A DNA stretch of 30,815 nt from a virus (taxonomy: Duplodnaviria; Heunggongvirae; Uroviricota; Caudoviricetes): the IMG/VR virus record IMGVR_UViG_2531839668_000005; one strand, given 5' to 3'. Within the stretch, counting starts at the first letter, position 1. Each line of letters begins with the position of its first letter. Shown piece after piece: positions 1-26,580 of this stretch. Position numbers and translations under genes: made by a program. Below the pieces are notes generated by a model that saw only the letters and a program-made list of their open reading frames with translations, was not told the DNA's origin and did not search any database.

Positions 1-194
1 TTAACGGTATGAGTTCTCACGAATAGCCGATTTGCAAATTGTATCAAAAGACAACAAATTTCTCAGTTCAACTCCCTATTGGTAACTGAACTCATAGATA
101 AGGTCCGTTATGCTTTTCATAGGTAGACGAATACGGTAACTTTTCTCAATAGCACGATTCTATCCGCAGTACCAGCATAGGTGGAGAATGGATT

Positions 195-1040
195 TTGAAC
201 AATTGGTCACCAGAGCATACAAAAGTCATCAAGAGCTGGTTTAAGATTGATACATATCGCAAATTTGAAGACCTCTCATTGATTCAGTTCTACCATGAGA
301 TATGGGCCCGTAAATTGTTCTTTAAGGAGTATCGGGAAGAGTTTGAGAGCAGAGCACTTGCGGGTTACTTCTCAAAAATTTTTAGTGGCAATCCTTTTTT
401 AATTGAAGAAGGACAACTGGGATACATGACTCCTGCCAACAAACTTTTTCAACCTCCCCATTTCTTTCTCACAACTCTTGATCGCCTTGCTGAAACGAGC
501 ATTATTGCAATGCAACGTGGAGGTTTTCTTTGGCATGAAGGTGACAATTATTCTATAAACGCAGAGCTTCGAGAAGAATCACTTTCAGACATTATGCCAG
601 ATCAGTTTACACGAACGATCATGTTCGAGATTGATCTGGCAAGTGGCACAGACGAAGAGATTGCAGAGTCGCTTAAAGCTGCATTACCGCAGTGGCGTAA
701 AGTTAAGGGTATTGATGAAAACCCATTGGAATCTGTTCGTTTTGGATACGGAACTATCAAGAAACTCATCAGTTATCGTGTAATACCTATGCTTGATATC
801 CTGGTGTGGGCAGCCGTTAAAAAAATCCGTGTCTCTGACGACAGGTTATCCAGACTACTATATACAGACGATGACGAAGAAAGCGAAATGAGACAGTCCA
901 GCCAAATCAAAGATACCGACAGGCCTTTGGCTCTTAAATCCTGCACAACTGACTTTATCCGACAATTCCATTACTTCATGAACAAAAACAGCCATTTAAA
1001 GCAAATGAAAGTCTCTGATGTAATGAAACTATCGGATTAA
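195..1040 (+). CDS. hypothetical protein (281 aa)
   Basis: Long ORF in the track; TTG start at 195 preceded by GGTGGAG; followed by a hairpin plus T-run at 1086-1116. No family recognised. Confidence 0.45.
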   Translation: MNNWSPEHTKVIKSWFKIDTYRKFEDLSLIQFYHEIWARKLFFKEYREEFESRALAGYFSKIFSGNPFLIEEGQLGYMTPANKLFQPPHFFLTTLDRLAETSIIAMQRGGFLWHEGDNYSINAELREESLSDIMPDQFTRTIMFEIDLASGTDEEIAESLKAALPQWRKVKGIDENPLESVRFGYGTIKKLISYRVIPMLDILVWAAVKKIRVSDDRLSRLLYTDDDEESEMRQSSQIKDTDRPLALKSCTTDFIRQFHYFMNKNSHLKQMKVSDVMKLSD

Positions 1041-1085
1041 GAGTTAATTAATAACTGTCTGTTTTTTTATTATAAAAATAAACTA

Positions 1086-1116
1086 AAAGCACTACTGTAA
1101 ATGGTGCTTTTTTTTG
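1086..1116 (+). terminator. Rho-independent terminator candidate
   Basis: AAAGCAC...GTGCTTT inverted repeat followed by a run of T immediately downstream of the 195-1040 ORF. Confidence 0.5.
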
Positions 1117-1322
1117 CGATTTTTACTTTAAACCGGCCATTTTTACACTTGCTATAAAACAGGGGAATTTCAGCTACTCTCAAGTTCCCTTGTTCTGTAC
1201 TGCACCAACTTCGAGAAAACCATCCTGCACAGCAGCGAAGAACCTCCGCTTCAGGAGCTTCGCTCCTTTCTTTTCCCAACTGCTCGTATAGTGACTTCAC
1301 CGCAACGACAAGGGATAACGAA

Positions 1323-1529
1323 ATGAAAAATCAAGCAACCCGCCTCATACGCTTACCAGAAGTTCTCGAACGAACTGGCTACGGAAAAGCCTGGATCTAT
1401 CGTCTGATCAACGATGGCAAGTTTCCTGCTCCTGTCAAAATTGGAAGTCGTGCAATAGCTTTCGTTGAAAGTGAGATTGATAGCTGGATTCAGTCTGTTA
1501 TCGAAACAAGTCGAAATAATGTTGCTTAA
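1323..1529 (+). CDS. alpA: AlpA-family phage/island transcriptional regulator (excisionase-like HTH)
   Basis: 68 aa; sequence RLIRLPEVLERTGYGKAWIYRLINDGKFPAPVKIGSRAIAF is the characteristic AlpA/Xis-type helix-turn-helix of P4-like islands such as CP4-57. Confidence 0.8.
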   Translation: MKNQATRLIRLPEVLERTGYGKAWIYRLINDGKFPAPVKIGSRAIAFVESEIDSWIQSVIETSRNNVA

Positions 1530-1549
1530 TTGAATTTAGGAGAGATTTT

Positions 1550-1849
1550 ATGACTATCGAAGAATTTGTGAATGAAGAAAACCATATGTGTAATCTGGGC
1601 CAGGAACTATTCTTTAAAATTTTCGAGCCTGAATCGATTTATAATTTACCCAATAACGAGTTTAATAAAGAAATAATATATTGGCTCAGTCAGTATCTTG
1701 TCGGAAATTTGATACAACCTTTAGACGCGATCTCAGAGCTTAATGCTTCCAAACAAATATATGTTTACGAGACTTGGTTTTCGCTAATTAAATGCCCTGA
1801 TGAAATGAAACTCTTGGCGAAGCGGATAATTGAATATTTATTGGATTAA
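1550..1849 (+). CDS. hypothetical protein (99 aa)
   Basis: ORF beginning 21 bp after alpA with GGAGAG upstream of the ATG; no family recognised. Confidence 0.4.
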   Translation: MTIEEFVNEENHMCNLGQELFFKIFEPESIYNLPNNEFNKEIIYWLSQYLVGNLIQPLDAISELNASKQIYVYETWFSLIKCPDEMKLLAKRIIEYLLD

Positions 1850-2061
1850 GAAATTCATATGGCAATGCAAAGTTTTGCTGCATATTTTAGATTAAAACGT
1901 TAAAGAATAACTTGCATTATTTTTATGACCGTTCTTTTGCAAGGCAGTGAGATGGTTTTAGGTGGGTTGGGTGTGCATAATATTAATAGTGTTAGGACGG
2001 TTTTTAGTATTAAGAAGTAATAATAATAGCCATTGGTGAAAATTATGACGGGATTTTTACC

Positions 2062-2373
2062 ATGACATTTCATATTAATAAGTATAGGAAAGTTAAAATG
2101 AATAATTCAATCATAGTACCAGAAGATAAAGATTTTGTATGTGCGTTTGCGACTTCACCGAATAGCTTTTATGAGGCTATTGAATCCTATCGTAATTATG
2201 TAGATCTAGTCCAAGAGATAGAGTTCGAGCACGTCTTTCTTTATTTATTGTTTTCTATAGTGGTCAATGGTAGTACAGATATTACGATTAATGATGAAGT
2301 ACGAATGTGTATTGAGCAGCTTGTCTATGAAAAAAATAGTATCAGAAATAATAATGCAGATAAAAAGATGTAA
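2062..2373 (+). CDS. hypothetical protein (103 aa; true start may be the internal ATG near 2098)
   Basis: ORF in AT-rich DNA; no family recognised. Confidence 0.35.
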   Translation: MTFHINKYRKVKMNNSIIVPEDKDFVCAFATSPNSFYEAIESYRNYVDLVQEIEFEHVFLYLLFSIVVNGSTDITINDEVRMCIEQLVYEKNSIRNNNADKKM

Positions 2374-2544
2374 AGGCTGTAATAAATTATCATGGGTACA
2401 GACAGCACAAGTCTGTACCTTCTTATTTTAATTCAACAGATAATGATACATGAAAATTATGTGCTTTTGATAGTGGTCATCTGGTTTTCTATAGTAAACA
2501 TTATAGGATATAGGTTATCCTGAATTTTAATATTATGCTCTTTT

Positions 2545-2850
2545 TTATTTAAAAGAGCTGAAAAATACAGGATTTAAATGGTGTTGGTATTTAAACTCAG
2601 TAGGTATAGTAACACTCGCATCAATCAGTTCTGTGATAGCCTGATAAAATTGAGTGGGTGTAATATGTATCCCTTCTTGCTGTGCTATGGGCGTAACACG
2701 ATGAAAAATTAGGTAAACAATGCTCTTATCTGGCTTATACGACGCGATTAATGTAAGCAACCAGAATACATTGTGAATAGTAGTGTTAAGATTATGACTT
2801 TCAACTGATGATTGATTATTTTGAAAGTAAGTGGAGAGTCTTTTTTGCAT
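2545..2850 (-). CDS. hypothetical protein (101 aa)
   Basis: ORF immediately downstream of 2915-3478 on the same strand; no family recognised. Confidence 0.3.
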   Translation of the reverse strand: MQKRLSTYFQNNQSSVESHNLNTTIHNVFWLLTLIASYKPDKSIVYLIFHRVTPIAQQEGIHITPTQFYQAITELIDASVTIPTEFKYQHHLNPVFFSSFK

Positions 2851-2914
2851 AAAGGTATCGTTTTTTTGTTAATGTTATCACTCGCGTGGAGAAAATTACC
2901 ACGCTGTAATGTTT

Positions 2915-3478
2915 TTAAAATGGAATGCCGTCTGCAGGATTTCGTCTTCTGGAGTTTTTAACTGATTTTGTTTTACTCCAGGCACGATAAAAATTAAACG
3001 AATTGGCAAAATCTTCTGTCTCCAGTCTGGATTTTCTGAATTTATCCATCAGATCTTCATTGAAACGACGAGGAATTCCCTTAACGCACAAGTTTGAATT
3101 CAGATATACCTGATTATCTATGGTGTCACGAATAAGTATTTTTTTTCCAAATAACTCTTTGAATGCACGTGAAACATTTGATTTATTCAGCCCAAGCTCT
3201 TTGGCAGTACGTGACTGTGAAAAATCAGGAATAATATTACCGTAATCAATGGCTGAGAAGAGATAAATCACAATTCTAAATGCTGTAGGCGTCAAATCCA
3301 TTCTGGCGAGTGTCGCCATATTACCTTTAAATACCATTGAGAAATCGTCCTTGAAGGACGTCTTTTTATAGCTGGTTGCTTTAATTTTTATTTCTTCTAG
3401 ATCTTCGGGCATAACCTCTAATGCTTCTGCAATAATGGATTTTTGTTCTTTAGTTAATACAACACTTGTGATTGACAT
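2915..3478 (-). CDS. putative winged-helix/HTH DNA-binding protein (replication-initiator-like or regulator)
   Basis: 187 aa; segment AKELGLNKSNVSRAFKELFGKKIL resembles an HTH recognition helix; three iteron-like direct repeats lie about 450 bp away. Confidence 0.45.
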   Translation of the reverse strand: MSITSVVLTKEQKSIIAEALEVMPEDLEEIKIKATSYKKTSFKDDFSMVFKGNMATLARMDLTPTAFRIVIYLFSAIDYGNIIPDFSQSRTAKELGLNKSNVSRAFKELFGKKILIRDTIDNQVYLNSNLCVKGIPRRFNEDLMDKFRKSRLETEDFANSFNFYRAWSKTKSVKNSRRRNPADGIPF

Positions 3479-3939
3479 AATGGCTCCTTTTTTATTGTTG
3501 TGATTACAGACATGGCATATTTAATTTATTTGTCAATGGTTTTGATGATATTATTTTAATTATATCTTATTTGAATTTTTTATCCGTTCTTTGGTGGTGG
3601 TAATAGGTTGTAAAATTTGAAACGAGGGGTGCTAAATTTAACCATCACCTGTTATGTGATTGATAATTTTTGGTGCTGAAATTAACAACGGCATATTTTG
3701 TATAATCATATGATTTTATTAGATAATTTTTGATTTTGATCTGCAAGATAAAAGAGTGATAAAGAAATAAGAAACCACAGTTTTGCATTTGATCGATACT
3801 CAAGGCCTTGGTGTACCTGATGAAAACATTTTTATTATTGCTTTTCTTAAATAATATCATTTGTAAATTGAAGCCTGCGCAACTGTGTGTTACGCCCCAT
3901 TGGGCTTCAGAACATCACTATAGTGTTTTCAGTCAGTAT

Positions 3940-4053
3940 AAATACGCTTCGCGCACGAGTTCACAGTATTTAGGTTTACTGTCATTAAAAATACGCTTCG
4001 TGCAGAAGTTCAGAAAAATGGGGTTAGCTGTCAGCACAAATACGCTTCGCGCA
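3940..4053. repeat. three direct repeats of AAATACGCTTCG(C/T)GCA at 49-bp spacing (iteron-like)
   Basis: Copies at 3940-3955, 3989-4004 and 4038-4053; the first two continue with the related GAGTTCACAG / GAAGTTCAGA extension. Confidence 0.7.
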
Positions 4054-4517
4054 AAAAAAAATCAGGAGGCTAAGTTGATCGGGAAAGCGAACACAGATAC
4101 ATGATTTACCCGTTTGCTGACTACGGCTCACGCCGGGACCCTTCGGAAAAACCCTTTCTGCTTCAGCGAGTGAGTGCTGCGGGCACTCAGAGGCGCTGCC
4201 AGGGAGACAAAATTAAGTTTTTCAACTGTTTGGTAAAAATAATTAACATTTATAGGTAGTCGGGGCGTAAGCCAGTGCGTAGCACGCTCTCAAAAAATAT
4301 TCCTGTGGGTTTCTTATCTGCAATAGGGAAATAACTCAGATAATTGATATATGAAAAAACAATACAATCGGGAAGACACAACTTTAGCACAGTAAAAGCT
4401 ATTTGTATTTATGAGGAATAAAATATATATGAATAATAAAATATTTTTATTTTGCTATTGATTTTAATTTTTAAGATGATAGTACTTAATTATAAAAACA
4501 AAATAATGGAGGATATT

Positions 4518-4943
4518 ATGAGTGCTATTAATGTGTTATCTCAGGAGGAAAAATTTATACATGTTGTTGATAAATTTATAACCCATAATCACAACGGCGT
4601 TAATAACAATGTCTTTTATAAAAAACTTTATGTTCTCTTCGCCGGATATCATCTGAAGTATTTTTATTCACGGGCGCAATATCGCAATTCGTGTTATCAC
4701 GTTGATAATATCATGCAGATGTTTATGGGTGTCGTTTCTACCCTGAAGACCCCTCTGCTCAGGCAACTCGCAAACAGTGACACATTGCTGCATTGCCTGA
4801 ATTCGCTCGTGAATTATATTTCAGGCAATCTGGATGAAGCAGAGCACATTTATGCTGATTTACTGGCACAGTATGAAAAGAAACGCATTGCACGTTCTCT
4901 GGCTTATACACCACCAGGATCCGTGGTCAGGAAAAGACTGTGA
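4518..4943 (+). CDS. hypothetical protein (141 aa from the ATG at 4518)
   Basis: GGAGG 8 nt upstream of the ATG at 4518 (the track ORF starts earlier at 4452). C-terminus ...PPGSVVRKRL matches the C-terminus of the ankyrin protein at 8169-9122. Confidence 0.5.
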   Translation: MSAINVLSQEEKFIHVVDKFITHNHNGVNNNVFYKKLYVLFAGYHLKYFYSRAQYRNSCYHVDNIMQMFMGVVSTLKTPLLRQLANSDTLLHCLNSLVNYISGNLDEAEHIYADLLAQYEKKRIARSLAYTPPGSVVRKRL

Positions 4944-5030
4944 GACATCGGAAATGCGCCGGACAAGGCAGAGTATGGCAGAGTGACATAAAAGCAGTCG
5001 TTTCCCGCAAGATATTACCGGGCATTAAAA

Positions 5031-5061
5031 AGGCAGGATCCACCGATTTGGTGTCCTGCCT
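5031..5061. terminator. bidirectional hairpin between convergent genes
   Basis: AGGCAGGA ... TCCTGCCT perfect 8-bp inverted repeat between the plus-strand gene ending 4943 and the minus-strand gene ending 5085. Confidence 0.4.
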
Positions 5062-5084
5062 GGCGGGATTATTTTATTGTGGTC

Positions 5085-5363
5085 TTACTTATCAACGACC
5101 TGCCAGCCATCATCTGTTTTGACCAGCTTGACAGCCGCTGTGCGTTTTTCGTTATCGACAACAGCTGTTACATTGCATTTATAGCTTTTATCCGATAGTT
5201 TTTCGCAGTCGTGTTTTTTGACTGATTTTAACTTCCGCAGCATGTCAGGCGTGATATCGTTTCTCGCTATGGATTTAACGATGGCATTCGTCTGCTCCAC
5301 GACCTTATTCATCGCAGTGTAAATATCCTGCTCAGACGGTTCACTGGTGCAGCCGGTCAGCAA
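5085..5363 (-). CDS. putative lipoprotein, mature domain; signal peptide lies in an adjacent frame (possible frameshift)
   Basis: ORF begins L-T-G-C (lipobox) at a TTG. An ATG at 5402-5404 encodes MKTYAFTTLIASIF then stops; adding one T to the T6 run (plus-strand A6 at 5362-5367) would give MKTYAFTTLIASIFLLTGC..., a canonical lipoprotein signal peptide. Confidence 0.5.
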   Translation of the reverse strand: MLTGCTSEPSEQDIYTAMNKVVEQTNAIVKSIARNDITPDMLRKLKSVKKHDCEKLSDKSYKCNVTAVVDNEKRTAAVKLVKTDDGWQVVDK

Positions 5364-5430
5364 AAAATGGACGCAATGAGTGTGGTAAATGCATATGTTT
5401 TCATAAAATAATCCCAGACGGTAGAGTACG

Positions 5431-5829
5431 TTATTGAAAAAGGCCGGTTTTCATCTTGCTGTTGTTTTCAGAGAACGTCCACTTGCTGACGGTTTCGCCT
5501 TTAAATTCGATTTCCAGCGTTTTGGCCTGCGTCTGTGAACCCCCGGTCAGCAGTCCAATCACGGGAATGAATGTGGTGGCATCAAACTGATTGTTGTCCA
5601 TCGAATAAGTCCATTGTTCATTGCCACTATCAAGTGTAGTTTTGGTTTCGGGCTGACCGAATGCGGTAATGATTTCTGATTTCGTTGTTTTATTTTTGAT
5701 GATTTTCGACTGCAGACTTTGTGATGTTTCTTTTTTTAGATGCTGGTTGCCTGATGTTGAACAGCCAGAAATAAGTAAAGAAGAAATAAAAAACACAGAA
5801 ATCATGAATCTGTTCATAAGTTTTCTCAT
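5431..5829 (-). CDS. putative lipoprotein (132 aa)
   Basis: N-terminus MRKLMNRFMISVFFISSLLISGCS has a hydrophobic signal sequence and a LISGC lipobox. Confidence 0.6.
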   Translation of the reverse strand: MRKLMNRFMISVFFISSLLISGCSTSGNQHLKKETSQSLQSKIIKNKTTKSEIITAFGQPETKTTLDSGNEQWTYSMDNNQFDATTFIPVIGLLTGGSQTQAKTLEIEFKGETVSKWTFSENNSKMKTGLFQ

Positions 5830-5866
5830 ATTAATTTTTTATGTTTGCGGTGGTGTGAAATTAATA

Positions 5867-6142
5867 TCATCTTATAAAAACAACTCTGTCTGCATATTTC
5901 TTTTTAATAATGCAGATAAGAATAATGACGCTGGCAAAAAACGTAATGACTGAGGCAGGAGTGCTGCCGGTCAATGAAAACACTAACCAGGCGAGAGCTA
6001 ATGCCACGAATTGAAACAGGAATGCCACACTGAGTGGACTTTCACCATAGGCCACTTTTGCATGGCAACCTTTGCAAACCCGCACACCGTGTGGGCTTTG
6101 TGTAAAGCAGAAAGGGCAGCTAATCGTTTTATTATCCATCAT
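5867..6142 (-). CDS. small zinc-ribbon membrane protein (91 aa)
   Basis: CPFC...CKGC cysteine pairs at the N-terminus followed by two hydrophobic helices. Confidence 0.5.
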   Translation of the reverse strand: MMDNKTISCPFCFTQSPHGVRVCKGCHAKVAYGESPLSVAFLFQFVALALAWLVFSLTGSTPASVITFFASVIILICIIKKKYADRVVFIR

Positions 6143-6327
6143 GACTCCGTAGCCTGATTTAAGGTGATGTATTTTTGAACATTTTCGATGAATGAACTGC
6201 TTTAGTAAAATTGCTTGTACCGATCGATGGATCTCAGGCGATAGGTTATATCTATTATAACTAGATTATCGATCTATAAAAACGATCGATATCTTATTGA
6301 CTATCACTAAAGTATGGACTAGCTAAC

Positions 6328-7563
6328 TTATGGTGCAGGATGGTTGTTGTTTTTAAATGATTGTTCTTTATTGGTATTTGTTGTCATGGGATGACAGGGT
6401 GTCAGAATATGTAGGTGGAGGATTTGGTGGAAAGGATGTGCAGTGGCATGTAACAGAGACATGCCTCTGCGCCTGAGAAGTGCCACAATATGGACGAGCA
6501 ATACAAGCCATGAATACAGACGACGCTGGCGGGGTATCTGACGAGCTGTATTGTGCAGATTGCTCCTGAGCTGGATGATACCCACTGTCTCCTGTTGTCT
6601 TTCCAGACGAATTTTTTCTTCAAGCTGATGGATTTTCTCCAGAATCGTTTCCCGGTTTGCAGCCTGCTCTTCAGACTCGCATGATGGCACTGGCACTGGC
6701 ACTGGCACTGGCACTGGCACTGGCACTGGCGCGGTTGTAGGTTCTATTGGCCTCTGGGCTTCTTTCAGTAAACTCAGATGCTCAGGCGTAAAATCAATCA
6801 GTGCTTGCAGGGAAGACCAGCCATATTTTTTACCCAACTGAGATGCTTTAAAGGCAATACCCTGGTATTGAAATGAAAATCCACTCATTTTACCCGTAGT
6901 GGCGATATTGGGTTTGCAGGTCACTCCTTCCTGTTCCAGTAAGCGAACAAAGGTTAGTAAATCGGGATGGTGTGTTAATGCATTGTCGAGCAGGGCCTGC
7001 AACAGTGACTTAGGGCAGGGAGCTGCTGTGCGTTCTGCCATCATCAGTTCATTACGGGAAGGCTTCCTTTTATCCTGGCGGCTACTGCCGGTTACACCCG
7101 TAGTTTCGGTGAGGCCGTGTACTCTCTCCAGCTCACTGATAATCCGTGTGCCGATAAGATTTTCATTTTTCCCCAGGTACAGTTTTCCACCGACCATGTT
7201 AATACGACTTGCAATGATATGAATATGCTGCCCATCCGGATCATCGTGCATGATATAGCAGCGAAGATGGGTGTCAGTGAAGCCCATTCGGGCCATATAA
7301 TCGTCAGCGAATGCTGCCCACTGTCTGTTTGACAGTTTCTCACCCTTTGGCAGGCGAAGTGAATTATGCCAGACAGGTTTGGCGACATCGGGACGCAGCA
7401 GTCGGGTGCCTTCAAATTCACTTATAAGCTCAGCAGCAGTGCTACCCGTCATGTTGCCACCGATGACATAAGGCGTGATTTTGTGGTGAGAACCTGACTT
7501 CAGGCTATAAATAACCACACCTGTGAATTGTTTACCCCTTTTTATTTTCTGCATGCCTTTCAT
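6328..7563 (-). CDS. mobA: MobA/relaxase-family mobilization protein (C-terminal boundary uncertain)
   Basis: N-terminal region contains the relaxase histidine triad context (HDDPDGQHIHIIASRI) and an early Tyr; start overlaps the mobC stop. Includes a (Pro-Val)7 linker; sequence after the linker is low-complexity and may not all be coding. Confidence 0.7.
   Translation of the reverse strand: MKGMQKIKRGKQFTGVVIYSLKSGSHHKITPYVIGGNMTGSTAAELISEFEGTRLLRPDVAKPVWHNSLRLPKGEKLSNRQWAAFADDYMARMGFTDTHLRCYIMHDDPDGQHIHIIASRINMVGGKLYLGKNENLIGTRIISELERVHGLTETTGVTGSSRQDKRKPSRNELMMAERTAAPCPKSLLQALLDNALTHHPDLLTFVRLLEQEGVTCKPNIATTGKMSGFSFQYQGIAFKASQLGKKYGWSSLQALIDFTPEHLSLLKEAQRPIEPTTAPVPVPVPVPVPVPVPSCESEEQAANRETILEKIHQLEEKIRLERQQETVGIIQLRSNLHNTARQIPRQRRLYSWLVLLVHIVALLRRRGMSLLHATAHPFHQILHLHILTPCHPMTTNTNKEQSFKNNNHPAP
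6688..6729. repeat. (CACTGG)7 perfect hexanucleotide tandem repeat
   Basis: Seven uninterrupted CACTGG units on the plus strand; on the minus strand they encode the PVPVPVPVPVPVPV linker inside mobA. Confidence 0.95.
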
Positions 7564-7967
7564 GGGTCTGACTCCAGAAATGTTGAGGGAATAAGGTGAT
7601 CCCTGAGAGTTTTGATTTGTCTGCGCAGGGCGAAGAGTTCTGTACGGGTCAGTTCGCTGTCAGGGCTTTTGCTGTCGAGATGACTCAACAGGTAGTTTAA
7701 ATCCTGTGAAAGGCTGCCAAGTTTTATCCATGCTTCACGATTGATTTCTGGCAGAACCGGCGGGAGTTTATTCAGGGAAGCCATCCTGAGCCATTCTCCT
7801 TTTTTATACTGACCTCTTTTACTGTCGAGAATAATTAATTCTTCTTCATTTAATCTGACACTGATGCAGTGATGTCGTATTTCATTCTCAGGAAATTTGT
7901 CAGTATGGAATTTACCGCGTTTTGATACTCTGGTTATATCATCATCATTACTCATGTCACTGTTCAT
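7560..7967 (-). CDS. mobC: MobC-like relaxosome accessory protein
   Basis: 135-aa ORF directly upstream of and overlapping the relaxase gene start, the conserved mobC-mobA arrangement; ELFALRRQIKTLRDHL region is typical of the family. Confidence 0.6.
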   Translation of the reverse strand: MNSDMSNDDDITRVSKRGKFHTDKFPENEIRHHCISVRLNEEELIILDSKRGQYKKGEWLRMASLNKLPPVLPEINREAWIKLGSLSQDLNYLLSHLDSKSPDSELTRTELFALRRQIKTLRDHLIPSTFLESDP

Positions 7968-8168
7968 AGTTATCCTTTTATTTCATGTTTATTACTACAG
8001 ATAACCGATGAAATGAATAAGTCAAGTTGTTACGGGATAAATAATTTAATTATCTGGATTAAAAAAGGTATACCATTTGACAAATAGTATACCCACGAGG
8101 ACATATCAGATTAATGGTCATTAAATGAATCCTTGCAGACTAAGAAAAGGGTTGTTTACTCCAGAGTT

Positions 8169-16927: not shown

Positions 16928-18157
16928 TTATGCGGCAATAACTTTGTATTTTTGAGACGAAACATAGTCACTCCACCATTGCATGAGAACCACACGTTCT
17001 GTGAGATACTCTGCACGATTGTAGGCTGCAATTATTTCATCTTTTTTCGAGTGGGCAAGGGCGGCTTCTAAGACATCAGTTCTAAACTTGCCACACTCCT
17101 CAGCCGCCGTTCTAGCGATTGATCGCATACCATGAGCTACAAGCTCACCTCCGAAGCCCATACGGATTATAGCCGCATTAGCTGTTTGTTCATGCATGTG
17201 ATTGAGTGGAGCTTTGATACTGGGAAAAACCCACTCTCTATGCCCGCTGATGGCTTTCATTGAATCCAAGACTCGCAAAGATTCTTTGCTCAGTGGAACT
17301 TTGTGAGGCTTCTTCATTTTCATAAACTCCGCCGGGATGTTCCACATGCTGGTTTCTATATCAATATCTGACCATCTTGTGCGAACAGCTTCACCAGGGC
17401 GAACCCATGTGAGAAGTTGCCACTCAATCAGTAGCCTTGTTTCTAAACGGATAGAAGCATTGTTTAGAGCAACCAGGAAGCGGGGGAGTTCGGAAGGGGG
17501 TAATGCTGGCATATTCTGTTTTTTTGGCTTGCTGAACCGTTGCCCCAGGTTGTCAGCCGGATTGAATTCTATGAGTTCTTCTGTTGCTGCATAGCGGAAA
17601 ATTTCATTCAGGCGGGATATGACGCGGCGAAGTGTTTCAAGGACACCTCGTTTTTCTATGGGGTCTAAATGCTGTTTAAGCATTTTAGGGCGAATCTCCT
17701 TAATGGGGGTATCACCCAACGTTGGAAAGATATTTCTCTCTAGGCTTCGCCAGATGTCGTTAGCATGATCCTGGGAGATGCCTGACGTTTTGACTTTCTC
17801 ATCAAGCCACTTCTTGGCTACTGCTTGAAATGTATGTTCCGTTGCATCCTTAAGGGCATTGGCTTTGTGGGTGTTATGAACTTGTGGGTCTATACCATTT
17901 GCAAGCAACGACAAGTACTCATCACGTAAAGCTCGTGCCTTCGCAAGTGTAAGGTGAGGATAGGTTCCTAAGCTCACCTTAGTTCGCTTTTTGGTCACAG
18001 GCACTGCATATCTGAAATACCAATTTTTCTTTCCTCCCTTCGCTAAGGGGGCGATTCGCAGGAGCAAACCATCGCCGTCAAAAAGGTTAACCTCTTTCTC
18101 GGCAGGTTTGGTGCTTTTGATTTCAGTGTCAGTGAGCTTCTTAGCGATTTTTGCCAT
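16928..18157 (-). CDS. int: P4-type tyrosine integrase
   Basis: From the ATG at 18155-18157: MAKIAKKLTDTEIKSTKPAEK...GLLLRIAP...WYFRY... N-terminal arm-binding domain and C-terminal HGMRS...Y catalytic region typical of P4/CP4-57 integrases; adjacent to the ssrA-derived att repeat. Confidence 0.85.
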   Translation of the reverse strand: MAKIAKKLTDTEIKSTKPAEKEVNLFDGDGLLLRIAPLAKGGKKNWYFRYAVPVTKKRTKVSLGTYPHLTLAKARALRDEYLSLLANGIDPQVHNTHKANALKDATEHTFQAVAKKWLDEKVKTSGISQDHANDIWRSLERNIFPTLGDTPIKEIRPKMLKQHLDPIEKRGVLETLRRVISRLNEIFRYAATEELIEFNPADNLGQRFSKPKKQNMPALPPSELPRFLVALNNASIRLETRLLIEWQLLTWVRPGEAVRTRWSDIDIETSMWNIPAEFMKMKKPHKVPLSKESLRVLDSMKAISGHREWVFPSIKAPLNHMHEQTANAAIIRMGFGGELVAHGMRSIARTAAEECGKFRTDVLEAALAHSKKDEIIAAYNRAEYLTERVVLMQWWSDYVSSQKYKVIAA

Positions 18158-18323
18158 GTTTGGGACCCTCATGTTTTGGACCCTTTGTGTTGGGTCCCAA
18201 AAAGGGTGCCATAACGAGTAGATTCTAGCAATTCTCGGTAGACTACTATAGACGTAAAAAAGCCCGCAAGGCTGGTTCCATGCGGGCTTGATAGACTTCA
18301 CTGAACTTCAATATATCAAAAAT

Positions 18324-18368
18324 TGGTGGAGCTGGCGGGAGTTGAACCCGCGTCCGAAATTCCTACAT
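18324..18368 (-). other. ssrA: partial ssrA (tmRNA) 3' end, attachment-site repeat
   Basis: Plus strand TGGTGGAGCTGGCGGGAGTTGAACCCGCGTCCGAAATTCCTACAT is the reverse complement of the 3' terminus of E. coli tmRNA as recalled; the match stops after 45 nt, so only the 3' end is present. Confidence 0.8.
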
Positions 18369-19130
18369 AGCATTTCAATGTCTGTAAAAACAATGATTTG
18401 CTTTGATTTTCAGTTGGTTAGATTTATGCGGTGTCTGTCCGTTTTATGGGTTTTTAACTTTCTGCCGCCAAAGTGCCGCCACTGCATTTGTCGCCTAAAC
18501 GCCTATTCGAAACGATTAATCTCTCGGCGATCTTAATCTTGGAGAGCTTATCTAGGCAGATAAAGCATATTGCTACTCCCGATACCACAAAATAGCTGCT
18601 TAAACCAAAGTATTGCCAAGTAGTTAGATGGTTTATCTTCTCCATCATCTTAGCACTTACTACAACAGAATAACTGAAAGGAAGTGCTACGATGAGACTG
18701 CTCATGAAGTAAATTAGAGTTGTTATGATTTTTATTAATTTTCTATATATGCTGTATTTATATCTTTTTTTATTCCATGCGAATATTTCTTTATGGGTGG
18801 TAATGGAAATTAGACTTTGACATTGGAATAATTATCTATATCGCTAACGGGGTTTGTTGTGTTGAGTAATATTAATCTTTGTTTTTTGTCAATGTGTTAT
18901 CTTTGGTTAATGCAGCAATGCCGTAATCTTCCGCCAGTTTTTTGAAGGTCGGATCTTCACTGCTTTTATACATCTGATATGAAAATTCGCTAATGTTTTT
19001 ACGTGATGTGAATAGTTTATCTTTTTTATAAGTCCACCCTGTTTTAAGCCCTAATAAGGATATAATGGCAGATAGGGAAGGGAATAATATTTTTATAAGT
19101 AACTCTAGTTCGCTATTCATAAATTACTAC

Positions 19131-20147
19131 TTACCTCAAATTAAATAAAGGATTTTTAGTTACGGCATCTTCTAAATGGTCTGGGGCGAAGTGTGCATAG
19201 ACCATGGTCATTTTTATATCTGAATGTCCTAGGATATCCCGCAAAACCAATATGTTTCCACCATTCATCATAAAATGGCTAGCGAATGTATGACGCAGAA
19301 CGTGAGTACATTGACCCTCTGGCAGATCGATACCAGCCCGCTTTACTGCACGCTCAAAGGCTTTTCTGCATGGGGTGAATAACTTCCCCCTATTCTTAGG
19401 CAGTTCTTCATATAAATCCTTAGAAATAGGCACAGTTCGGTTTTTCTTGCCTTTGGTCTTGGTATAAGTGATACGGTATTTTGATACCTGATGACTCTGC
19501 AGGTTTTCGGCTTCGCTCCAGCGTGCGCCGGTGGCCAGGCATATTTTTGCAATCAAAAGCAGGCTGGAGCTTTGAGAATCGGCGCAGGCATCCAGCAGAC
19601 GTTTAATTTCTTCCGGGGTCAGGAACGCCAATTCACTCTCAGCAATTTTAAATGTTGGCAGCCCAGCAAGCGGGTTGGGGGCTGACCAGTGGCCCAGCTT
19701 TTTCAGCGTACCAAAAACAGATGATAGATTGCGCTGTTCAAGGTTTACCGTGCGGGGCTTAACGGGCGACATAAACGTGCCATCTTCATTTCGTACTTCA
19801 CCTTTTAACCGTGCTTCGCGGTATTTCGTAAAGTCACCGGCTGTCAGTTCTGAGGCGATGGGGTCGCCTAGACCATTACAGATAATTCTAAGTTTCGCCA
19901 TGAGGCGCTTGGGGTCTGCGAGTGTCTGACCATACAGGGAATACCAAAGCTCAATTAATTCTGATAGGTGTCGCCGATCATCCTTTTCTCCTAACCACGG
20001 TTTTTTGTTCACTTCTTCCATTGTGAAGCTTTCAAATGCAATGGCTTCGCCTTTGGTAGCAAATTGCTTACGCACGCGCTTACCATTGCGTCCATTGGGA
20101 TAGCACTCACACAACCATTTTCCGTTCGGCTGTTTTCTGATGGTCAT
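19131..20147 (-). CDS. int: P2/186-type phage tyrosine integrase
   Basis: N-terminus ...YPNGRNGKRVRKQFATKGEAIAFE... and C-terminal HVLRHTFASHFMMNGG...LGHSDIKMTMVYAH catalytic region; followed by the CI repressor gene on the same strand. Confidence 0.85.
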   Translation of the reverse strand: MTIRKQPNGKWLCECYPNGRNGKRVRKQFATKGEAIAFESFTMEEVNKKPWLGEKDDRRHLSELIELWYSLYGQTLADPKRLMAKLRIICNGLGDPIASELTAGDFTKYREARLKGEVRNEDGTFMSPVKPRTVNLEQRNLSSVFGTLKKLGHWSAPNPLAGLPTFKIAESELAFLTPEEIKRLLDACADSQSSSLLLIAKICLATGARWSEAENLQSHQVSKYRITYTKTKGKKNRTVPISKDLYEELPKNRGKLFTPCRKAFERAVKRAGIDLPEGQCTHVLRHTFASHFMMNGGNILVLRDILGHSDIKMTMVYAHFAPDHLEDAVTKNPLFNLR

Positions 20148-20150
20148 AAG

Positions 20151-20789
20151 TTAGAGGTTCTTGATTACTTTGACTGCACGTCCTACAACTTCCACATCAT
20201 CTACAGAACATTCAAATGAAGTGTCATCTTGGCTAACTACTATTTTGTTTCCGGGTATGCGCGCAATTTTGACGATGCTTTTAACTCCGTCCATATCGAC
20301 TAACCAGAAGCCATTACTGACTTGTTTAACGGACGTATCCACTACAAAGCTATTATTAGCTGTTTTAACAAATAAAGCGTTGGATGAGTCACCATCGAGC
20401 AGGCTGCTATCAAGAAGAATTTCATCACTTGCCTGCAGTTCGCCGTTCTTCAGTTCAACACGTTTGATGCTAGGAGCAACGATCTTAGAAAGTGGTCTTA
20501 CAGTGACGGGAGGTTCATTTTTGAGATTTGTTTCTTCGTTCTCACACGCATACATATCTCCTTGACCAGTAGCCAGCCATAGAAGGGAAGCTCCTGTTTC
20601 AAGGGCACATTGAATTACCCATTCGGCAGGAAAGCTATCCCTTAAGTATCTGTTAGCCATAGTGCTTTTGGATACTTCCAGATGTTCGCAGAGCTGCTGT
20701 CGTGAGCTGAAGTTGTAAGCCTTAATAAGCCTGTTAATTGCATCGCGCCCACCACTATCATTTCCCGCTTTGATTAAACTCATAATCAA
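20151..20789 (-). CDS. cI: 186-like CI immunity repressor
   Basis: CALETGASLLWLATGQGDMY and C-terminal WLVDMDGVKSIVKIARIPGNK...FECSVDDVEVVGRAVKV closely resemble phage 186 CI as recalled. Confidence 0.75.
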   Translation of the reverse strand: MIMSLIKAGNDSGGRDAINRLIKAYNFSSRQQLCEHLEVSKSTMANRYLRDSFPAEWVIQCALETGASLLWLATGQGDMYACENEETNLKNEPPVTVRPLSKIVAPSIKRVELKNGELQASDEILLDSSLLDGDSSNALFVKTANNSFVVDTSVKQVSNGFWLVDMDGVKSIVKIARIPGNKIVVSQDDTSFECSVDDVEVVGRAVKVIKNL

Positions 20790-20794
20790 ACCTC

Positions 20795-20823
20795 TTGACG
20801 TATATAAAAAGTGATCTTAATAT
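20795..20823 (+). promoter_or_regulatory. sigma70-type promoter candidate for the early lytic operon (pR-like)
   Basis: TTGACG (20795-20800), 17-bp spacer, TAATAT (20818-20823), in the cI to apl intergenic switch region. Confidence 0.45.
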
Positions 20824-20899
20824 CCATTCATGGTTTGAAAAGCAAAACCAAACCACATAAAACAAGATAAAACGAAACCAAACTAAGAGATACTGCACT

Positions 20900-21058
20900 A
20901 TGAGTACTGATATTTCAATTCGTGTACCAAAAGAGATGGCAACGCCTGCTGAGTTCGCTGAATGGGAAGGTATCTCCCGCGGCTCTGTGTATCAAAAAAT
21001 TCACCATGGTCAGCTTGCTAAATACATGGTCAAGAAGGAAAAAACAAAGGCCGCGTAA
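20900..21058 (+). CDS. Apl/Cox-like small HTH excision-regulatory protein (52 aa)
   Basis: Small ORF, not in the supplied track, at the position of apl/cox in P2/186-like phages; translated by eye as MSTDISIRVPKEMATPAEFAEWEGISRGSVYQKIHHGQLAKYMVKKEKTKAA. Confidence 0.5.
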   Translation: MSTDISIRVPKEMATPAEFAEWEGISRGSVYQKIHHGQLAKYMVKKEKTKAA

Positions 21059-21173
21059 GCCTGCGTTATTTAATGTACAAAACCGATCAGGTCCGTGAAT
21101 CCCTCGGTCATTCCAACTTCCGCGTCATTGTTGGTAAGTAAGTTCAATTATGAGAACTTTCTAAGGGGGTAGC

Positions 21174-21683
21174 ATGTTTGATTATAAGATTTCCAAACAC
21201 CCGCATTTTGATGAAGCCTGTAGAGCTTTTGCACTTCGTCACAATATGGCGAAGCTGGCAGAACGTGCAGGAATGAATGTCCAGACTCTGCGAAACAAAC
21301 TCAACCCAGATCAACCGCATCAGCTCAATGCGCCAGAAATCTGGCTGCTTACCGATCTGACTGAAGATTCAACGCTGATAGATGGTTTTCTGGCACAGAT
21401 TCACTGCCTGCCATGTGTACCGATTAATGAGGTAGCAAAAGAGAAACTGCCGCATTACGTCATGAGTGCAACCGCAGAGATCGGGCGTGTTGCTGCAGGT
21501 GCGGTATCTGGCGATGTAAAAACCAGTGCCGGTCGTCGTGATGCCATCAGCAGCATTAATTCTGTAACACGACTGATGGCGCTGGCGGCTGTTTCATTGC
21601 AGGCCCGTTTACAGGCTAACCCTGCGATGGCGAGTGCAGTTGATACTGTGACTGGCCTCGGTGCTTCATTCGGTTTGCTGTGA
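21174..21683 (+). CDS. cII: 186-like CII regulatory protein
   Basis: 169 aa, HTH region AKLAERAGMNVQTLRNKLNP; position and size match phage 186 CII. Confidence 0.65.
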   Translation: MFDYKISKHPHFDEACRAFALRHNMAKLAERAGMNVQTLRNKLNPDQPHQLNAPEIWLLTDLTEDSTLIDGFLAQIHCLPCVPINEVAKEKLPHYVMSATAEIGRVAAGAVSGDVKTSAGRRDAISSINSVTRLMALAAVSLQARLQANPAMASAVDTVTGLGASFGLL

Positions 21684-21690
21684 GGTGCTT

Positions 21691-21987
21691 ATGCTGACGA
21701 AAGAACCATCATTTGCGTCGCTGCTGGTAAAACAAAGTCCGGCAATGCACTACGGTCACGGCTGGATCACGGGTGAGGATGGAAAACGCTGGCATCCATG
21801 TCATTCACAAGATGAATTGCTGTCTGAATTGACCACGAGGAAACGGAGAAAGTCCAAATGTATGCGGCAGAAAGTGAAGTGGTTTATCAGTTTCGTTACA
21901 GAGGGGAGAGTTATTCAGTACCTGAAGATGATTTGCTCTGTTGCTATCCGTCATTGTCGGGCGATGGCAGTTACTTTTTCACGTTAA
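21691..21987 (+). CDS. hypothetical phage early protein (possibly Fil-like); 3' boundary uncertain
   Basis: ATG at 21691 preceded by GAGGTG; overlaps the next ORF in another frame, so one of the two boundaries is wrong. Confidence 0.3.
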   Translation: MLTKEPSFASLLVKQSPAMHYGHGWITGEDGKRWHPCHSQDELLSELTTRKRRKSKCMRQKVKWFISFVTEGRVIQYLKMICSVAIRHCRAMAVTFSR

Positions 21988-22082
21988 AGGATGGGACGTT
22001 TTTACGGGGAGAGCAGGTTAAAGAGACGATACGAAAAAATGTATCTCCTCTTGAGCGTTACCGTAAGAACAAAGAACGATAG
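21858..22082 (+). CDS. hypothetical phage early protein (74 aa)
   Basis: ATG with GGAGAAAG upstream; within the early operon. Confidence 0.4.
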   Translation: MYAAESEVVYQFRYRGESYSVPEDDLLCCYPSLSGDGSYFFTLKDGTFLRGEQVKETIRKNVSPLERYRKNKER

Positions 22083-22104
22083 CTGCGTTTGGGGGATATG
22101 AAGT

Positions 22105-22446
22105 ATGGCAATTAATGGCGCTGCAGCAACTGTTCCATTAAGCCCCGGTGAACGCCTGAATGGACTTAATCACATTGCGGAGTTAAGGGCGAAAGTTTTT
22201 GGCATGAATATTGAGTCAGAGCTTGAGCGGTTTATTAAAGATATGCGTGATCCACGGGATATCAATAATGAACAAAATAAACGGGCACTGGCTGCCATAT
22301 TCTTTATGGCAAAAATTCCAGCTGAACGTCATAGCATCAGCATTAATGAGCTGACCACTGACGAAAAGCGGGAGCTGATTAAAGCAATGAATCATTTTCG
22401 TGCAGTGGTGAGCTTATTTCCCAGACGGCTAACCATGCCGAATTAA
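22105..22446 (+). CDS. hypothetical phage early protein (113 aa)
   Basis: ORF in the early operon; no family recognised. Confidence 0.45.
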   Translation: MAINGAAATVPLSPGERLNGLNHIAELRAKVFGMNIESELERFIKDMRDPRDINNEQNKRALAAIFFMAKIPAERHSISINELTTDEKRELIKAMNHFRAVVSLFPRRLTMPN

Positions 22447-22513
22447 CCAACTAATGAAATTAATGGCGTAAACCCGCCGGGCATCCCTTTATCTAAATTC
22501 AGGAGAATTGATT

Positions 22514-22747
22514 ATGCGTAATATTGAAACCCTCACGACTAAAACCGGACCGGATGATGCAGGGCTTAATATTTTACTGACAGAGGCTCGTCTGGAAGAA
22601 CGCCGGGCAAGGGCTGAAGCAATGGCAGCTCGCCTTGATAGCCTGGCGTGTCATATCACATCCCGCCAACTAAACCACGTCGAAGCGGCAGAACTGCTGC
22701 GTGTGACTGCTGAAGCAATCCAGAACGAAGCGCAGGAGATCCACTGA
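22514..22747 (+). CDS. hypothetical phage early protein (77 aa from the ATG at 22514)
   Basis: AGGAG at 22501-22505 before the ATG at 22514; stop overlaps the next start (TGATG). Confidence 0.45.
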   Translation: MRNIETLTTKTGPDDAGLNILLTEARLEERRARAEAMAARLDSLACHITSRQLNHVEAAELLRVTAEAIQNEAQEIH

Positions 22748-22974
22748 TGGCTGATGCAATGGATCTCGTACAGCAGCGAGTTGAAGAAGAACGCCAACGT
22801 CATATCCGTGCTGCCCGTGCCAAAGCGCCGGGCGTGTCCCGCGTGCTTTGCGTTGAGTGTGAAGCGCCAATTCCGCCAGCACGCCGCCGTGCCATTCCGG
22901 GGGTGCAGCTTTGCATTACCTGTCAGGAAATCGCAGAGCTGAAAGGCAAACATTACAACGGAGGTGCTGTATGA
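22747..22974 (+). CDS. TraR/DksA-family C4 zinc-finger protein
   Basis: 75 aa with CVECEAPIPPARRRAIPGVQLCITCQ (Cys-x2-Cys ... Cys-x2-Cys), as found in the P2-like zinc-finger early protein. Confidence 0.7.
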   Translation: MADAMDLVQQRVEEERQRHIRAARAKAPGVSRVLCVECEAPIPPARRRAIPGVQLCITCQEIAELKGKHYNGGAV

Positions 22975-23828
22975 GCACCATCCTGAAATGGGCGGGAAAT
23001 AAAACCGCCATTATGTCCGAACTGAAAAAACACCTTCCTGCTGGCCCGCGACTGGTTGAACCTTTCGCGGGTTCCTGTGCTGTGATGATGGAGACGGATT
23101 ACCCCAGCTATCTGGTTGCGGATATTAATCCTGATTTAATCAACCTCTATAAAAAGGTTGCTGCTGATTGTGAATCGTTTATATCTCGCGCCAGAGTTTT
23201 ATTTGAGATCGCAAACAGGGAGGTGGCTTATTACAACATAAGGCAGGAGTTTAATTACTCCACTGAAATTACTGATTTCATGAAAGCGGTATATTTCCTG
23301 TATCTCAATCGTCACGGTTACCGTGGTTTATGTCGCTATAACAAGAGCGGGCATTTCAACATTCCCTACGGTAATTATAAAAATCCGTATTTCCCTGAAA
23401 AAGAAATTCGCGCATTTGCAGAAAAGGCCCAGCGAGCAACGTTTATCTGCGCCAGCTTTGATGAAACGCTGGCGATGTTGAAGGCGGGGGATGTGGTGTA
23501 TTGCGATCCGCCGTATGACGGTACGTTTTCCGGCTATCACACTGATGGTTTCACTGAAGATGACCAGTATCACCTGGCATCTGTTCTTGAACATCGGTCA
23601 TCAGAAGGACATCCGGTCATTGTTTCTAACAGTGACACATCCCTGATCCGTTCGCTGTATCGCAATTTTACTCACCACTACATCAAGGCAAAACGCAGCA
23701 TCGGTGTGGCAGCTGGCGAGGGTAAATCAGCAACAGAAATCATTGCTGTTTCCGGGCCGCGCTGCTGGGTGGGATTTGATTATTCGCGTGGCGTGGATAG
23801 TTCTGCCGTGTACGGAGTACGTGCATGA
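22971..23828 (+). CDS. dam: DNA adenine methyltransferase (Dam-like, N6-adenine, DPPY motif)
   Basis: [11 protein letters not shown]...FAGSCAV (AdoMet-binding region) and YCDPPYDG catalytic motif; GGAGG upstream of the ATG at 22971; stop overlaps the gene A start (ATGA). Confidence 0.85.
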
Positions 23829-26239
23829 GCCATGCCGATATGAACAACTGCTGCGGCTTTAACGAGGCTGCCGCATCGTTCTCATGGAACAGCCCGAAAA
23901 AGGCCATTAACCCTTATCTGGACCCGGCGGAAGTTGCGCCGGTTTCTGCGCTTTCAAACCTGATCACTCTGTACGCTGCCGATAACGAGCAGGAACAGCT
24001 GCGCCGCGAGGCACTGAGTGATCAGGTCTGGGAGCGTTATTTCTTTAATGAATCCCGTGATCCTGTCCAGCGCGAAATGGAGCAGGATAAGCTCATTAGT
24101 CGGGCAAAGCTGGCGCATGAGCAGCAGCGTTTTAATCCAGATATGGTCATTCTGGCGGACGTCAATGCCCAGCCTTCCCATATCAGCAAGCCGCTGATGC
24201 AACGTATTGAATACTTCAGCAGCCTGGGCAGGCCAAAGGCTTATTCCCGCTATTTGCGTGAGACGATTAAGCCATGTCTGGAACGACTGGAGCATGTACG
24301 CGACAGTCAGCTATCCGCTTCTTTTCGCTTTATGGCAAGCCATGAAGGGCTGGATGGCCTGCTTATCCTGCCTGAAATGAGTCAGGATCAGGTGAAGCGC
24401 CTGTCTACCCTTGTCGCTGCGCATATGAGCATGTGCCTTGATGCAGCTTGTGGTGATTTGTATGCCACCGATGACGTTAAGCCAGAAGAAATCCGCAAGA
24501 CATGGGAAAAGGTGGCAGCGGAAACCCTGCGTCTGGATGTTATCCCGCCTGCGTTTGAGCAACTCCGTCGGAAAAGAAACCGCCGTAAACCCGTGCCCTA
24601 TGAACTCATTCCGGGTTCGCTGGCGCGTATGTTGTGCGCTGACTGGTGGTACCGGAAATTATGGAAGATGCGTTGCGAATGGCGGGAAGAGCAGTTGCGT
24701 GCTGTCTGCCTGGTCAGCAAAAAAGCATCTCCCTATGTCAGCTATGAAGCCGTGATGCATAAACGTGAGCAGCGCCGTAAGTCGCTGGAGTTTTTTCGTT
24801 CTCATGAACTGGTGAACGAAGACGGCGACACGCTGGACATGGAGGATGTGGTAAACGCCAGCAGCAGCAACCCTGCGCATCGCCGCAATGAGATGATGGC
24901 CTGTGTTAAAGGCCTGGAGCTTATCGCGGAAATGCGTGGTGACTGCGCCGTTTTCTACACCATTACCTGTCCGTCACGTTTCCATTCCACGCTCAATAAC
25001 GGCAGACCAAACCCAACCTGGACAAATGCGACGGTAAGACAAAGCAGCGATTATCTGGTCGGCATGTTTGCTGCATTTCGTAAGGCGATGCACAAAGCCG
25101 GGTTGCGCTGGTATGGCGTGCGGGTGGCTGAGCCGCATCATGACGGTACGGTTCACTGGCACCTGTTGTGTTTCATGCGCAAAAAAGACCGCCGTGCCAT
25201 TACTGCATTGTTGCGTAAGTTTGCCATCCGTGAAGACCGCGAGGAACTGGGTAATAACACTGGTCCACGCTTTAAATCTGAGCTGATAAACCCGCGCAAA
25301 GGAACACCGACAAGCTACATCGCGAAATACATTAGTAAGAACATTGACGGGCGTGGTCTGGCTGGCGAGATCAGCAAGGAAACGGGTAAATCCCTGCGTG
25401 ATAACGCTGAATACGTTAATGCCTGGGCGTCTCTGCATCGTGTTCAGCAATTCCGCTTCTTTGGTATTCCGGGGCGTCAGGCTTACCGTGAACTGCGATT
25501 GCTGGCTGGTCAGGCGGCAAGGCAACAGGGCGACAAAAAAGCAGGTGCGCCGGTACTGGATAACCCGCGCCTTGATGCCATCCTGGCTGCTGCTGATGCT
25601 GGTTGTTTTGCCACTTACATCATGAAGCAGGGTGGTGTACTGGTTCCCCGCAAATATCACCTCATCAGAACTGCTTATGAAATTAACGAAGAGCCGACCG
25701 CCTATGGCGATCACGGCATTCGTATTTATGGCATCTGGTCACCCATTGCAGAGGGCAAGATCTGCACTCATGCAGTGAAGTGGAAAATGGTTCGTAAAGC
25801 CGTTGACGTTCAGGAGGCGGTAGCCGACCAGGGCGCTTGCGCCCCTTGGACTCGTGGCAATAACTGTCCCCTTGCTGAAAATTTGTACCAACAAGGGAAA
25901 GACAAATCAGCTGATGGAGATACCAGAACGGATATCACCCGCATGGATGACAAGGAGTTGCACGATTACCTGCACAGTATGAGCAAAAAAGAGCGCCGGG
26001 AACTGGCAGCAAGGTTACGCCTGGTGAAACCGAAACGGCGTAAAGACTACAAACAGCGAATTACAGATCATCAGCGACAGCAGCTCGTGTATGAACTGAA
26101 GTCCAGGGGATTTGATGGCAGCGAGAAAGAGGTCGATTTACTGCTTCGCGGCGGCAGTATTCCGTCAGGAGCAGGCCTGCGTATCTTCTATCGGAACCAG
26201 CGTTTGCAGGAAGATGATAAGTGGCGAAACCTGTATTAA
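23825..26239 (+). CDS. P2/186 gene-A-type rolling-circle replication initiator (HUH endonuclease)
   Basis: HWHLLCF (HUH motif) and SYIAKYISK (catalytic tyrosine motif); roughly 800 aa, as for P2 gpA. Confidence 0.85.
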
Positions 26240-26331
26240 TTACGCGGGTTAACAATTCGTGCTCTTAATAATACCAGGCATATCAGGCCGATGAGCGTAA
26301 AAAAACGTTTTACATCAGTAAGATTATTATA

Positions 26332-26351
26332 TACTGTAAATATAAACAGTG
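26332..26351. promoter_or_regulatory. LexA (SOS) box
   Basis: taCTGTaaatataaACAGtg: exact CTGT-N8-ACAG with an AT-rich spacer, about 40 bp upstream of the 26392 ORF. Confidence 0.6.
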
Positions 26352-26391
26352 GTTATTTATACAGTATTTCTTTGGTGTTATAGGAGGAAAG

Positions 26392-26580
26392 ATGCAGGAC
26401 TATTTTTTGGAGTCTTTGAAGCTCCAGCGCATTGATTTTTTTCTTAAGCTTGTAGCGGCTAGTGAGTGTAGTGATGAAGAGAAGGGGCTGGCTTTGCAGT
26501 GGGTTTCTGAACTGACAGATGAACTCATGGCAAAAATCAGAACCCACGAATACAACCGCTCAATGGATGTCATCAGTTGA
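26392..26580 (+). CDS. hypothetical protein, possibly the N-terminal part of a Tum-type SOS-inducible antirepressor
   Basis: GGAGG before the ATG; immediately downstream of the LexA box; overlaps the upstream extension of the DinI-like ORF in another frame. Confidence 0.4.
   Translation: MQDYFLESLKLQRIDFFLKLVAASECSDEEKGLALQWVSELTDELMAKIRTHEYNRSMDVIS

Follow-up and report, generated by a model that had tools for sequence, protein, structure and literature searches.

A lipoprotein gene divided between two reading frames

The window analyzed here (30,815 nt) is the whole of contig AFAE02000020.1 from the draft assembly GCA_000194645.2 of Escherichia coli 3.2303, and the element under study is a small lipoprotein gene on its minus strand whose signal peptide and lipobox lie in two different reading frames. 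The break occurs at a run of six T residues (T6), where relatives have seven; apart from this one missing T, the broken gene is identical to the coding sequence (CDS) present in strain 98-3133 and others. It is the second of two small lipoprotein genes located downstream of a MobA/VirD2-type relaxase gene. The upstream lipoprotein gene stops 26 nt ahead of the ATG, and this short gap makes it probable that the two genes share one transcript. The features of the locus are collected in Table 1, together with the sites at which the window is one base shorter than the finished genome used as a reference (NZ_CP051001.1).

Table 1. Features of the lipoprotein locus and one-base deficits of the window relative to NZ_CP051001.1 (aa, amino acids; ORF, open reading frame)
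Feature	Position	Strand	Details
Upstream lipoprotein gene, intact in the window	5431–5829	minus	'SEN1984 family lipoprotein' in some RefSeq records; lipobox Cys23 in the 132-aa reading
Complete broken gene, orthologue of the 106-aa lipoprotein WP_000860556.1	5085–5404	minus	320 nt here, 321 nt when intact
True start codon ATG	5402–5404	minus	Weak Shine-Dalgarno GGGA 7 nt upstream; RefSeq start of the intact CDS in relatives
Short frame ended by the frame break	5357–5404	minus	15 codons; signal-peptide n- and h-regions
T6 run (plus-strand A6)	5362–5367	minus	Site of one-base deficit; T7 in relatives
Deposited 92-aa ORF	5085–5363	minus	TTG start, MLTGCTSEP...; EII76117.1 / EC32303_2983
Terminator-like hairpin and T-run immediately 3′ of the lipoprotein gene	5032–5044	minus	Consensus scan only
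One-base deficit	5361		Window A6, reference A7; lipoprotein gene
One-base deficit	15733		Window T1, reference T2; recombinase-family CDS
One-base deficit	15798		Window T5, reference T6; same recombinase-family CDS as 15733
One-base deficit	18822		Window T2, reference T3; hypothetical CDS WP_001083625.1
One-base deficit	18881		Window T6, reference T7; hypothetical CDS WP_001083625.1
One-base deficit	21038		Window A6, reference A7; Rha-family regulator CDS, P2-like prophage
One-base deficit	27442		Window T7, reference T8; hypothetical CDS WP_000212611.1

Translation from the ATG, through codons that open with ATG AAA ACA TAT and close with TCC ATT TTT TGC TGA, yields MKTYAFTTLIASIFC, and the TGA that ends this frame is located at 5359–5357 on the minus strand. 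The deposited ORF opens at the lipobox LTGC and includes the entire mature domain, and its TTG lies 41 nt from the ATG. When the run is restored to T7, the two frames are joined as ATT TTT TTG CTG ACC GGC TGC (IFLLTGC), and the product becomes a protein of 106 aa, MKTYAFTTLIASIFLLTGC..., with its lipobox cysteine at residue 19. A preliminary description of this stretch had placed the ATG at 5402–5404, the A6 at 5362–5367, and the end of the TTG-started ORF at 5085, and all of these coordinates were confirmed on re-reading. The short upstream frame and its stop codon, which it had also described, were found as well, although the encoded peptide has 15 residues and not 14, the final Cys having been omitted.

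To classify the two versions, we used a lipoprotein rule of the PROSITE PS51257 type, which asks for a positively charged n-region (K or R among the first seven residues) and for an uncharged hydrophobic h-region followed by [LVI][ASTVI][GAS]C, with the Cys at residue 15–35 and in the same frame as the start. The n-region part of the rule agrees with the gene as deposited, as Lys2 lies within the first seven residues. The h-region and lipobox part does not, as the h-region (frame of ATG 5404) and LTGC (frame of TTG 5363) are out of frame with each other. The T7-repaired protein passes the rule with Lys2, an uncharged core, LTGC, and Cys19, and all six E. coli allele groups pass it too. It had been proposed that one extra T would yield a lipoprotein precursor and that a signal test on the corrected sequence would be informative; the test gave the expected answer, and the T7 orthologues, each a single CDS with Cys19, are in agreement.

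The same arrangement extends across the family. Among 112 cluster representatives from Escherichia, Salmonella, Citrobacter, Klebsiella, Enterobacter, Cronobacter, Raoultella, and Pectobacterium, a signal peptide with a lipobox is present in 100, and the cysteine is residue 19 in 88; the remaining 12 are fragments or N-terminally disrupted singletons. The residue following the lipobox cysteine (+2) is Thr in this allele and Asn, Thr, Ser, or Asp across the family. Because E. coli orthologues carry T7 as one 321-nt CDS and the lipobox is family-wide, the juxtaposition of the ATG frame and the TTG frame is, on this comparative evidence, not a product of chance. Among the singletons, entries P0087, P0124, P0089, and P0126 have aberrant N termini (MHLPHSSRPFLLSGC..., MLSGC...), which further insertions or deletions (indels) at or close to the T tract could explain, as could the starts picked by gene callers on fragmentary contigs.

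We also considered the TTG as a functional alternative start and rejected it. No purine-rich ribosome-binding site is present upstream of it, and the product is devoid of the n- and h-regions and fails the lipoprotein rule. Outside the N-terminally disrupted singletons, no orthologue among the 112 family representatives uses this start. The situation that would have spoken for a natural T6 gene, namely orthologues with the same tract length and a working alternative start, was not encountered: close relatives have T7, and the TTG is left unused outside the disrupted singletons.

A search of Pfam with the repaired protein gave no match, and in NCBIfam the sole match scored 16 bits vs a cut-off of 800. 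The mature domain of 87 residues is predicted to consist of one helix lying against an antiparallel sheet of four strands, a candidate cystatin/NTF2-like fold. The closest known small alpha+beta folds, which are cystatin-like and NTF2/VirB8-like, include those of the phytocystatins, TcpC (3ub1), PrgL (7aed), and IseA (8wt4).

Length of the T tract in related genomes

Of 5426 complete E. coli genomes, 151 carry the locus, in each case on the chromosome, and a search of the plasmid collection for it gave no match. In close relatives, the tract is T7 and the gene is annotated as one 321-nt CDS, WP_000860556.1, a protein that RefSeq names 'hypothetical protein' or 'cell wall-binding protein' and that occurs in E. 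coli and other Enterobacteriaceae. These loci have the same neighbors as the window (the relaxase, a small zinc-ribbon membrane protein, and the SEN1984-family lipoprotein) within the same island adjoining ssrA, and their DNA is the same except for the missing T. The difference lies in the T6 of the window, as opposed to T7, which gives the N-terminally shortened EII76117.1.

The preliminary description had called for a comparison of tract length among related strains, and the outcome is strongly one-sided. An 82-nt query with T7 matched exactly in 59 of 108 complete genomes, and the other matches listed all span 82 nt and hence have T7, with substitutions in the flanks. The corresponding 81-nt query with T6 found an exact match in only one of the 108, strain MLI104K2. 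Likewise, a pattern scan of metagenome contigs that permitted T5 to T10 returned T7 at 31 of 31 loci, and none of the loci inspected had T8. At the protein level, the exact intact 106-aa sequence is present on at least 1000 contigs and the 92-aa product on 5.

More divergent alleles bear on the nature of the tract itself. Those at 92%, 88%, and 82% identity read ATT TTT TTG or TTA and are still T7, and more distant ones read GCA TTT TTG, an in-frame T5, or the interrupted GCA TCG TTG. Because distant alleles hold a T5 or an interrupted tract, the run, as judged from this alignment of alleles, simply follows from the Ile-Phe-Leu codons that encode part of the signal peptide's hydrophobic core and is not a conserved element.

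One-base deficits along the contig and the origin of the T6 run

The whole window aligns in one piece to NZ_CP051001.1, the finished genome of O157:H16 str. 98-3133. Over 30,815 bases, the two differ by 2 substitutions, both of them G/A transitions in the window, and by 7 one-base gaps. All seven gaps are deletions in the window, each within an A or T run, and each lies in a CDS that the reference has intact. Five genes are broken as a result, with the recombinase gene and the gene for WP_001083625.1 each hit twice. The recombinase is split into ORFs at 15091–15696 and 15731–16651 and WP_001083625.1 into ORFs at 18454–18705 and 18872–19120, and an ORF at 27477–28151 belongs to the second hypothetical gene, broken at 27442.

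At the deficit sites, other genomes with homologous sequence side with the reference and not with the window. For 18822, 18881, and 27442, no complete genome matched the window exactly with 301-base queries (29 and 52 genomes), and the best matches extended over 303 bases (18822/18881) and 302 bases (27442). As a separate observation, strain MIN9 (NZ_CP069682.1), in which three annotated pieces lie at this place, matched the 301-nt query for window positions 27300–27600 over 301 nt and not 302, and its T run at 27442 may be as short as that of the window.

The composition of these differences is hard to obtain from ordinary mutation. If insertions and deletions were equally likely, seven deletions out of seven would have P = 0.008, and with indels making up as much as a quarter of real mutations, at least seven indels among nine differences would still have P = 1.3e-3. 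Extrapolated to a 4.9-Mb genome, the density of deficits corresponds to ∼1100 frameshifts. Nor are runs of just 2 and 3 T, in which two of the deficits lie, hot spots of slippage. Of the other A/T 7-mers in the contig, 2 of 15 are shortened, and the natural frequency of T6 at the lipoprotein tract is 0.6 to 0.9%. Taken together, these values gave a computed posterior of ∼0.94 to 0.96 for an artefact at this tract.

Deletions only, A/T runs only, and the longer state in other genomes form a signature of undercalling, and we therefore consider it very likely that the T6 in AFAE02000020.1 is an assembly artefact in which a T7 homopolymer was called one base short. This estimate is set somewhat below the computed posterior because it is based on assembled sequence. 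We infer that the contig-wide pattern of deficits is technical in origin, and the six further deficits are probably assembly errors that create false pseudogenes, so that errors of this sort probably account for the disruption of four other genes on the contig. The pattern resembles the homopolymer-length errors of draft or long-read-only assemblies in that the deficits are one-directional, confined to A/T runs, more numerous than substitutions, and disruptive of genes intact in relatives; it differs in that two of the seven lie in very short runs (T2, T3). Among the three causes that the preliminary description had offered, sequencing error is the best supported, given the six additional one-base homopolymer deletions against a near-identical finished genome.

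Given T7 in the cell, the gene would be intact and would encode an ordinary 106-aa lipoprotein precursor, MKTYAFTTLIASIFLLTG followed directly by the lipobox C. By analogy with the established lipoprotein pathway, the precursor would be exported by Sec, lipidated at Cys19 by Lgt, cleaved by signal peptidase II (LspA), and then N-acylated by Lnt. Whether the residue at +2 is Asp or another residue decides sorting to the outer membrane (the Lol-avoidance rule), and because the +2 residue here is Thr and not Asp, delivery to the outer membrane by Lol is predicted.

A number of findings weigh against an undercall. The case against the T6 call is an indirect one, made from assembled sequence, and a literature search on strain 3.2303 gave no sequencing platform for the assembly. 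The window consists solely of accessory DNA (island and prophage), in which decay is tolerated. Moreover, T6 is found elsewhere. The locus in MLI104K2 (NZ_CP116925.1, loci L003 and L015, the latter covering 1150000–1195000) carries it, as do a contig of SRR29981078 (L017) and one of SRR18191587 (L018), so that all three samples of the MLI104K2-like lineage have T6. MLI104K2 was ruled out as stand-alone confirmation of T6, as its 'complete' genome is riddled with homopolymer undercalls of the kind seen in the window (T8 to T7, A9 to A7, T7 to T6). Numerous genes in it are annotated as 'frameshifted' pseudogenes, among them both ParB genes and the core gene yfiB, and its pseudogene annotations are suspect. 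However, L017, of which 4.6 kb was inspected, has T6 and yet shows at full length the A7, T9, and A8 runs that are undercalled in MLI104K2. Because L017 is clean at these neighboring long runs, the MLI104K2-like lineage probably carries a genuine and apparently fixed T6 allele, and the T tract does seem, from these contigs, to mutate in nature.

Real inactivation of the gene by other means weighs in the same direction. In AST46 (NZ_AP043639.1, L004, 1124–1857), TGC is changed to TGA at the lipobox Cys19, a Gln codon of the upstream lipoprotein gene is changed to a stop, and the relaxase is also truncated; the module is in real decay in this strain. In E24377A (NC_009801.1, L011, 1–1656), the IS21-family element ISEc62 has cost the lipoprotein gene its 5′ half. 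Since the gene is truly inactivated in both strains, it is evidently dispensable, which keeps a real frameshift in contention.

Such a frameshift, with strain 3.2303 truly T6 and the gene a pseudogene, is nevertheless unlikely. The signal peptide would then be made as a 15-residue peptide, and the TTG product, having no signal peptide, would be neither exported nor lipidated. Recoding, with transcriptional or ribosomal slippage restoring the frame, was considered as well, but six T should be too short for slippage to any appreciable extent. The apparently real change from T7 to T6 in the MLI104K2-like lineage and the knock-outs in AST46 and E24377A favor it, with the tract as a plausible mutational hot spot. 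However, L017, MLI104K2, and L018 have two single-nucleotide polymorphisms (SNPs) in common that the window does not have, and the island of the window is otherwise identical to that of the T7 strain 98-3133. A real T6 in the window would therefore have arisen in an independent event, at a tract where the natural frequency of T6 is below 1%. It would also leave six more homopolymer deficits on the contig that no other genome shares, whereas a technical cause explains all seven together. The suggestion of a pseudogene made in the preliminary description is thus retained as a minor possibility for this strain, with a genuine T6 seemingly present in another lineage.

Slipped-strand phase variation, the third cause that had been suggested, fares considerably worse. 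Here, the T tract in the signal peptide would switch at a raised rate between T7 (ON) and T6 (OFF), giving reversible expression of a surface-exposed lipoprotein. The tract does lie early in the coding sequence of a lipoprotein gene, a classic site for such switches in other bacteria, and T6 would occur in two unrelated backgrounds if that of the window were real. A low-rate slipped-strand switch that has gone OFF independently in at least two E. coli lineages (3.2303 and the MLI104K2-like clone) is, we judge, very improbable. The contingency loci of Neisseria, Haemophilus, Campylobacter, Helicobacter, and Mycoplasma likewise have a mononucleotide tract in the 5′ coding region in which one base switches the frame. 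At only seven A/T bases, however, the tract here is short for such a locus; it shows practically no length variation in natural samples, and divergent alleles do not keep it, having T5 or an interrupted run instead. Length polymorphism is near zero in the metagenome contigs and complete genomes described above, and the uniform T6 of the three T6-lineage samples has the look of a fixed allele, not of switching. The two marks of a contingency gene, ON and OFF lengths that are both common and a tract maintained across orthologues, were therefore not found. E. coli is not known for homopolymer-tract switching of this type.

A mutator (mismatch-repair-deficient) strain, in which all seven deletions would be real and due to raised homopolymer slippage, accords with the two G/A transitions, as loss of mismatch repair raises both run indels and transitions, but it is scarcely credible given seven indels to two substitutions, all of them deletions (improbable even under the generous assumptions behind both P values), two deficits in runs of two to three bases, and an extrapolated number of frameshifts per genome that is incompatible with a viable isolate.

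With an undercalled T7 as the preferred explanation, the main value of the result is a quality flag on contig AFAE02000020.1 and on the deposited protein EII76117.1, which is probably a shortened mis-annotation of a common 106-aa lipoprotein. Pseudogene counts, lipoprotein predictions, and searches for phase-variable loci would be misled if they relied on this assembly or on that of MLI104K2. The split lipoprotein gene is most likely ordinary. If the T6 were real, a dispensable accessory gene would have gained a further loss-of-function allele, with little wider consequence; a true phase switch would be a rare case of a surface lipoprotein in E. coli being turned ON and OFF by a homopolymer.

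Genomic setting of the lipoprotein pair

The contig is a composite of an island (1–18400) and a P2-like prophage (18400–30815). The island contains the relaxase, an ankyrin-repeat protein, two ParB proteins, a recombinase, and an integrase, with an IS3 insertion in a DUF4928 gene at ∼10.5 to 11.7 kb, and it adjoins ssrA in relatives. It is an integrative and mobilizable island. The lipoprotein may plausibly act in transfer or in the envelope. A scan of the whole window against Rfam at gathering thresholds returned nothing.

The P2-like prophage encodes an integrase, CI, CII, a Dam methylase, and a replication endonuclease (23825–26239). A TIR-domain gene (28895–29497) occupies a cargo position beside the portal gene, and relatives have NACHT, SEFIR, P-loop NTPase, or dCTP-deaminase genes at comparable positions.

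Within the relaxase gene upstream of the lipoprotein pair (6328–7563, minus strand), a perfect hexanucleotide tandem repeat, TGGCAC in 7.7 copies at 6685–6730, encodes (Pro-Val)n. Its copy number varies by strain and stays in frame, being 24 nt longer in L001, 6 nt longer in L002, and longer also in L014.
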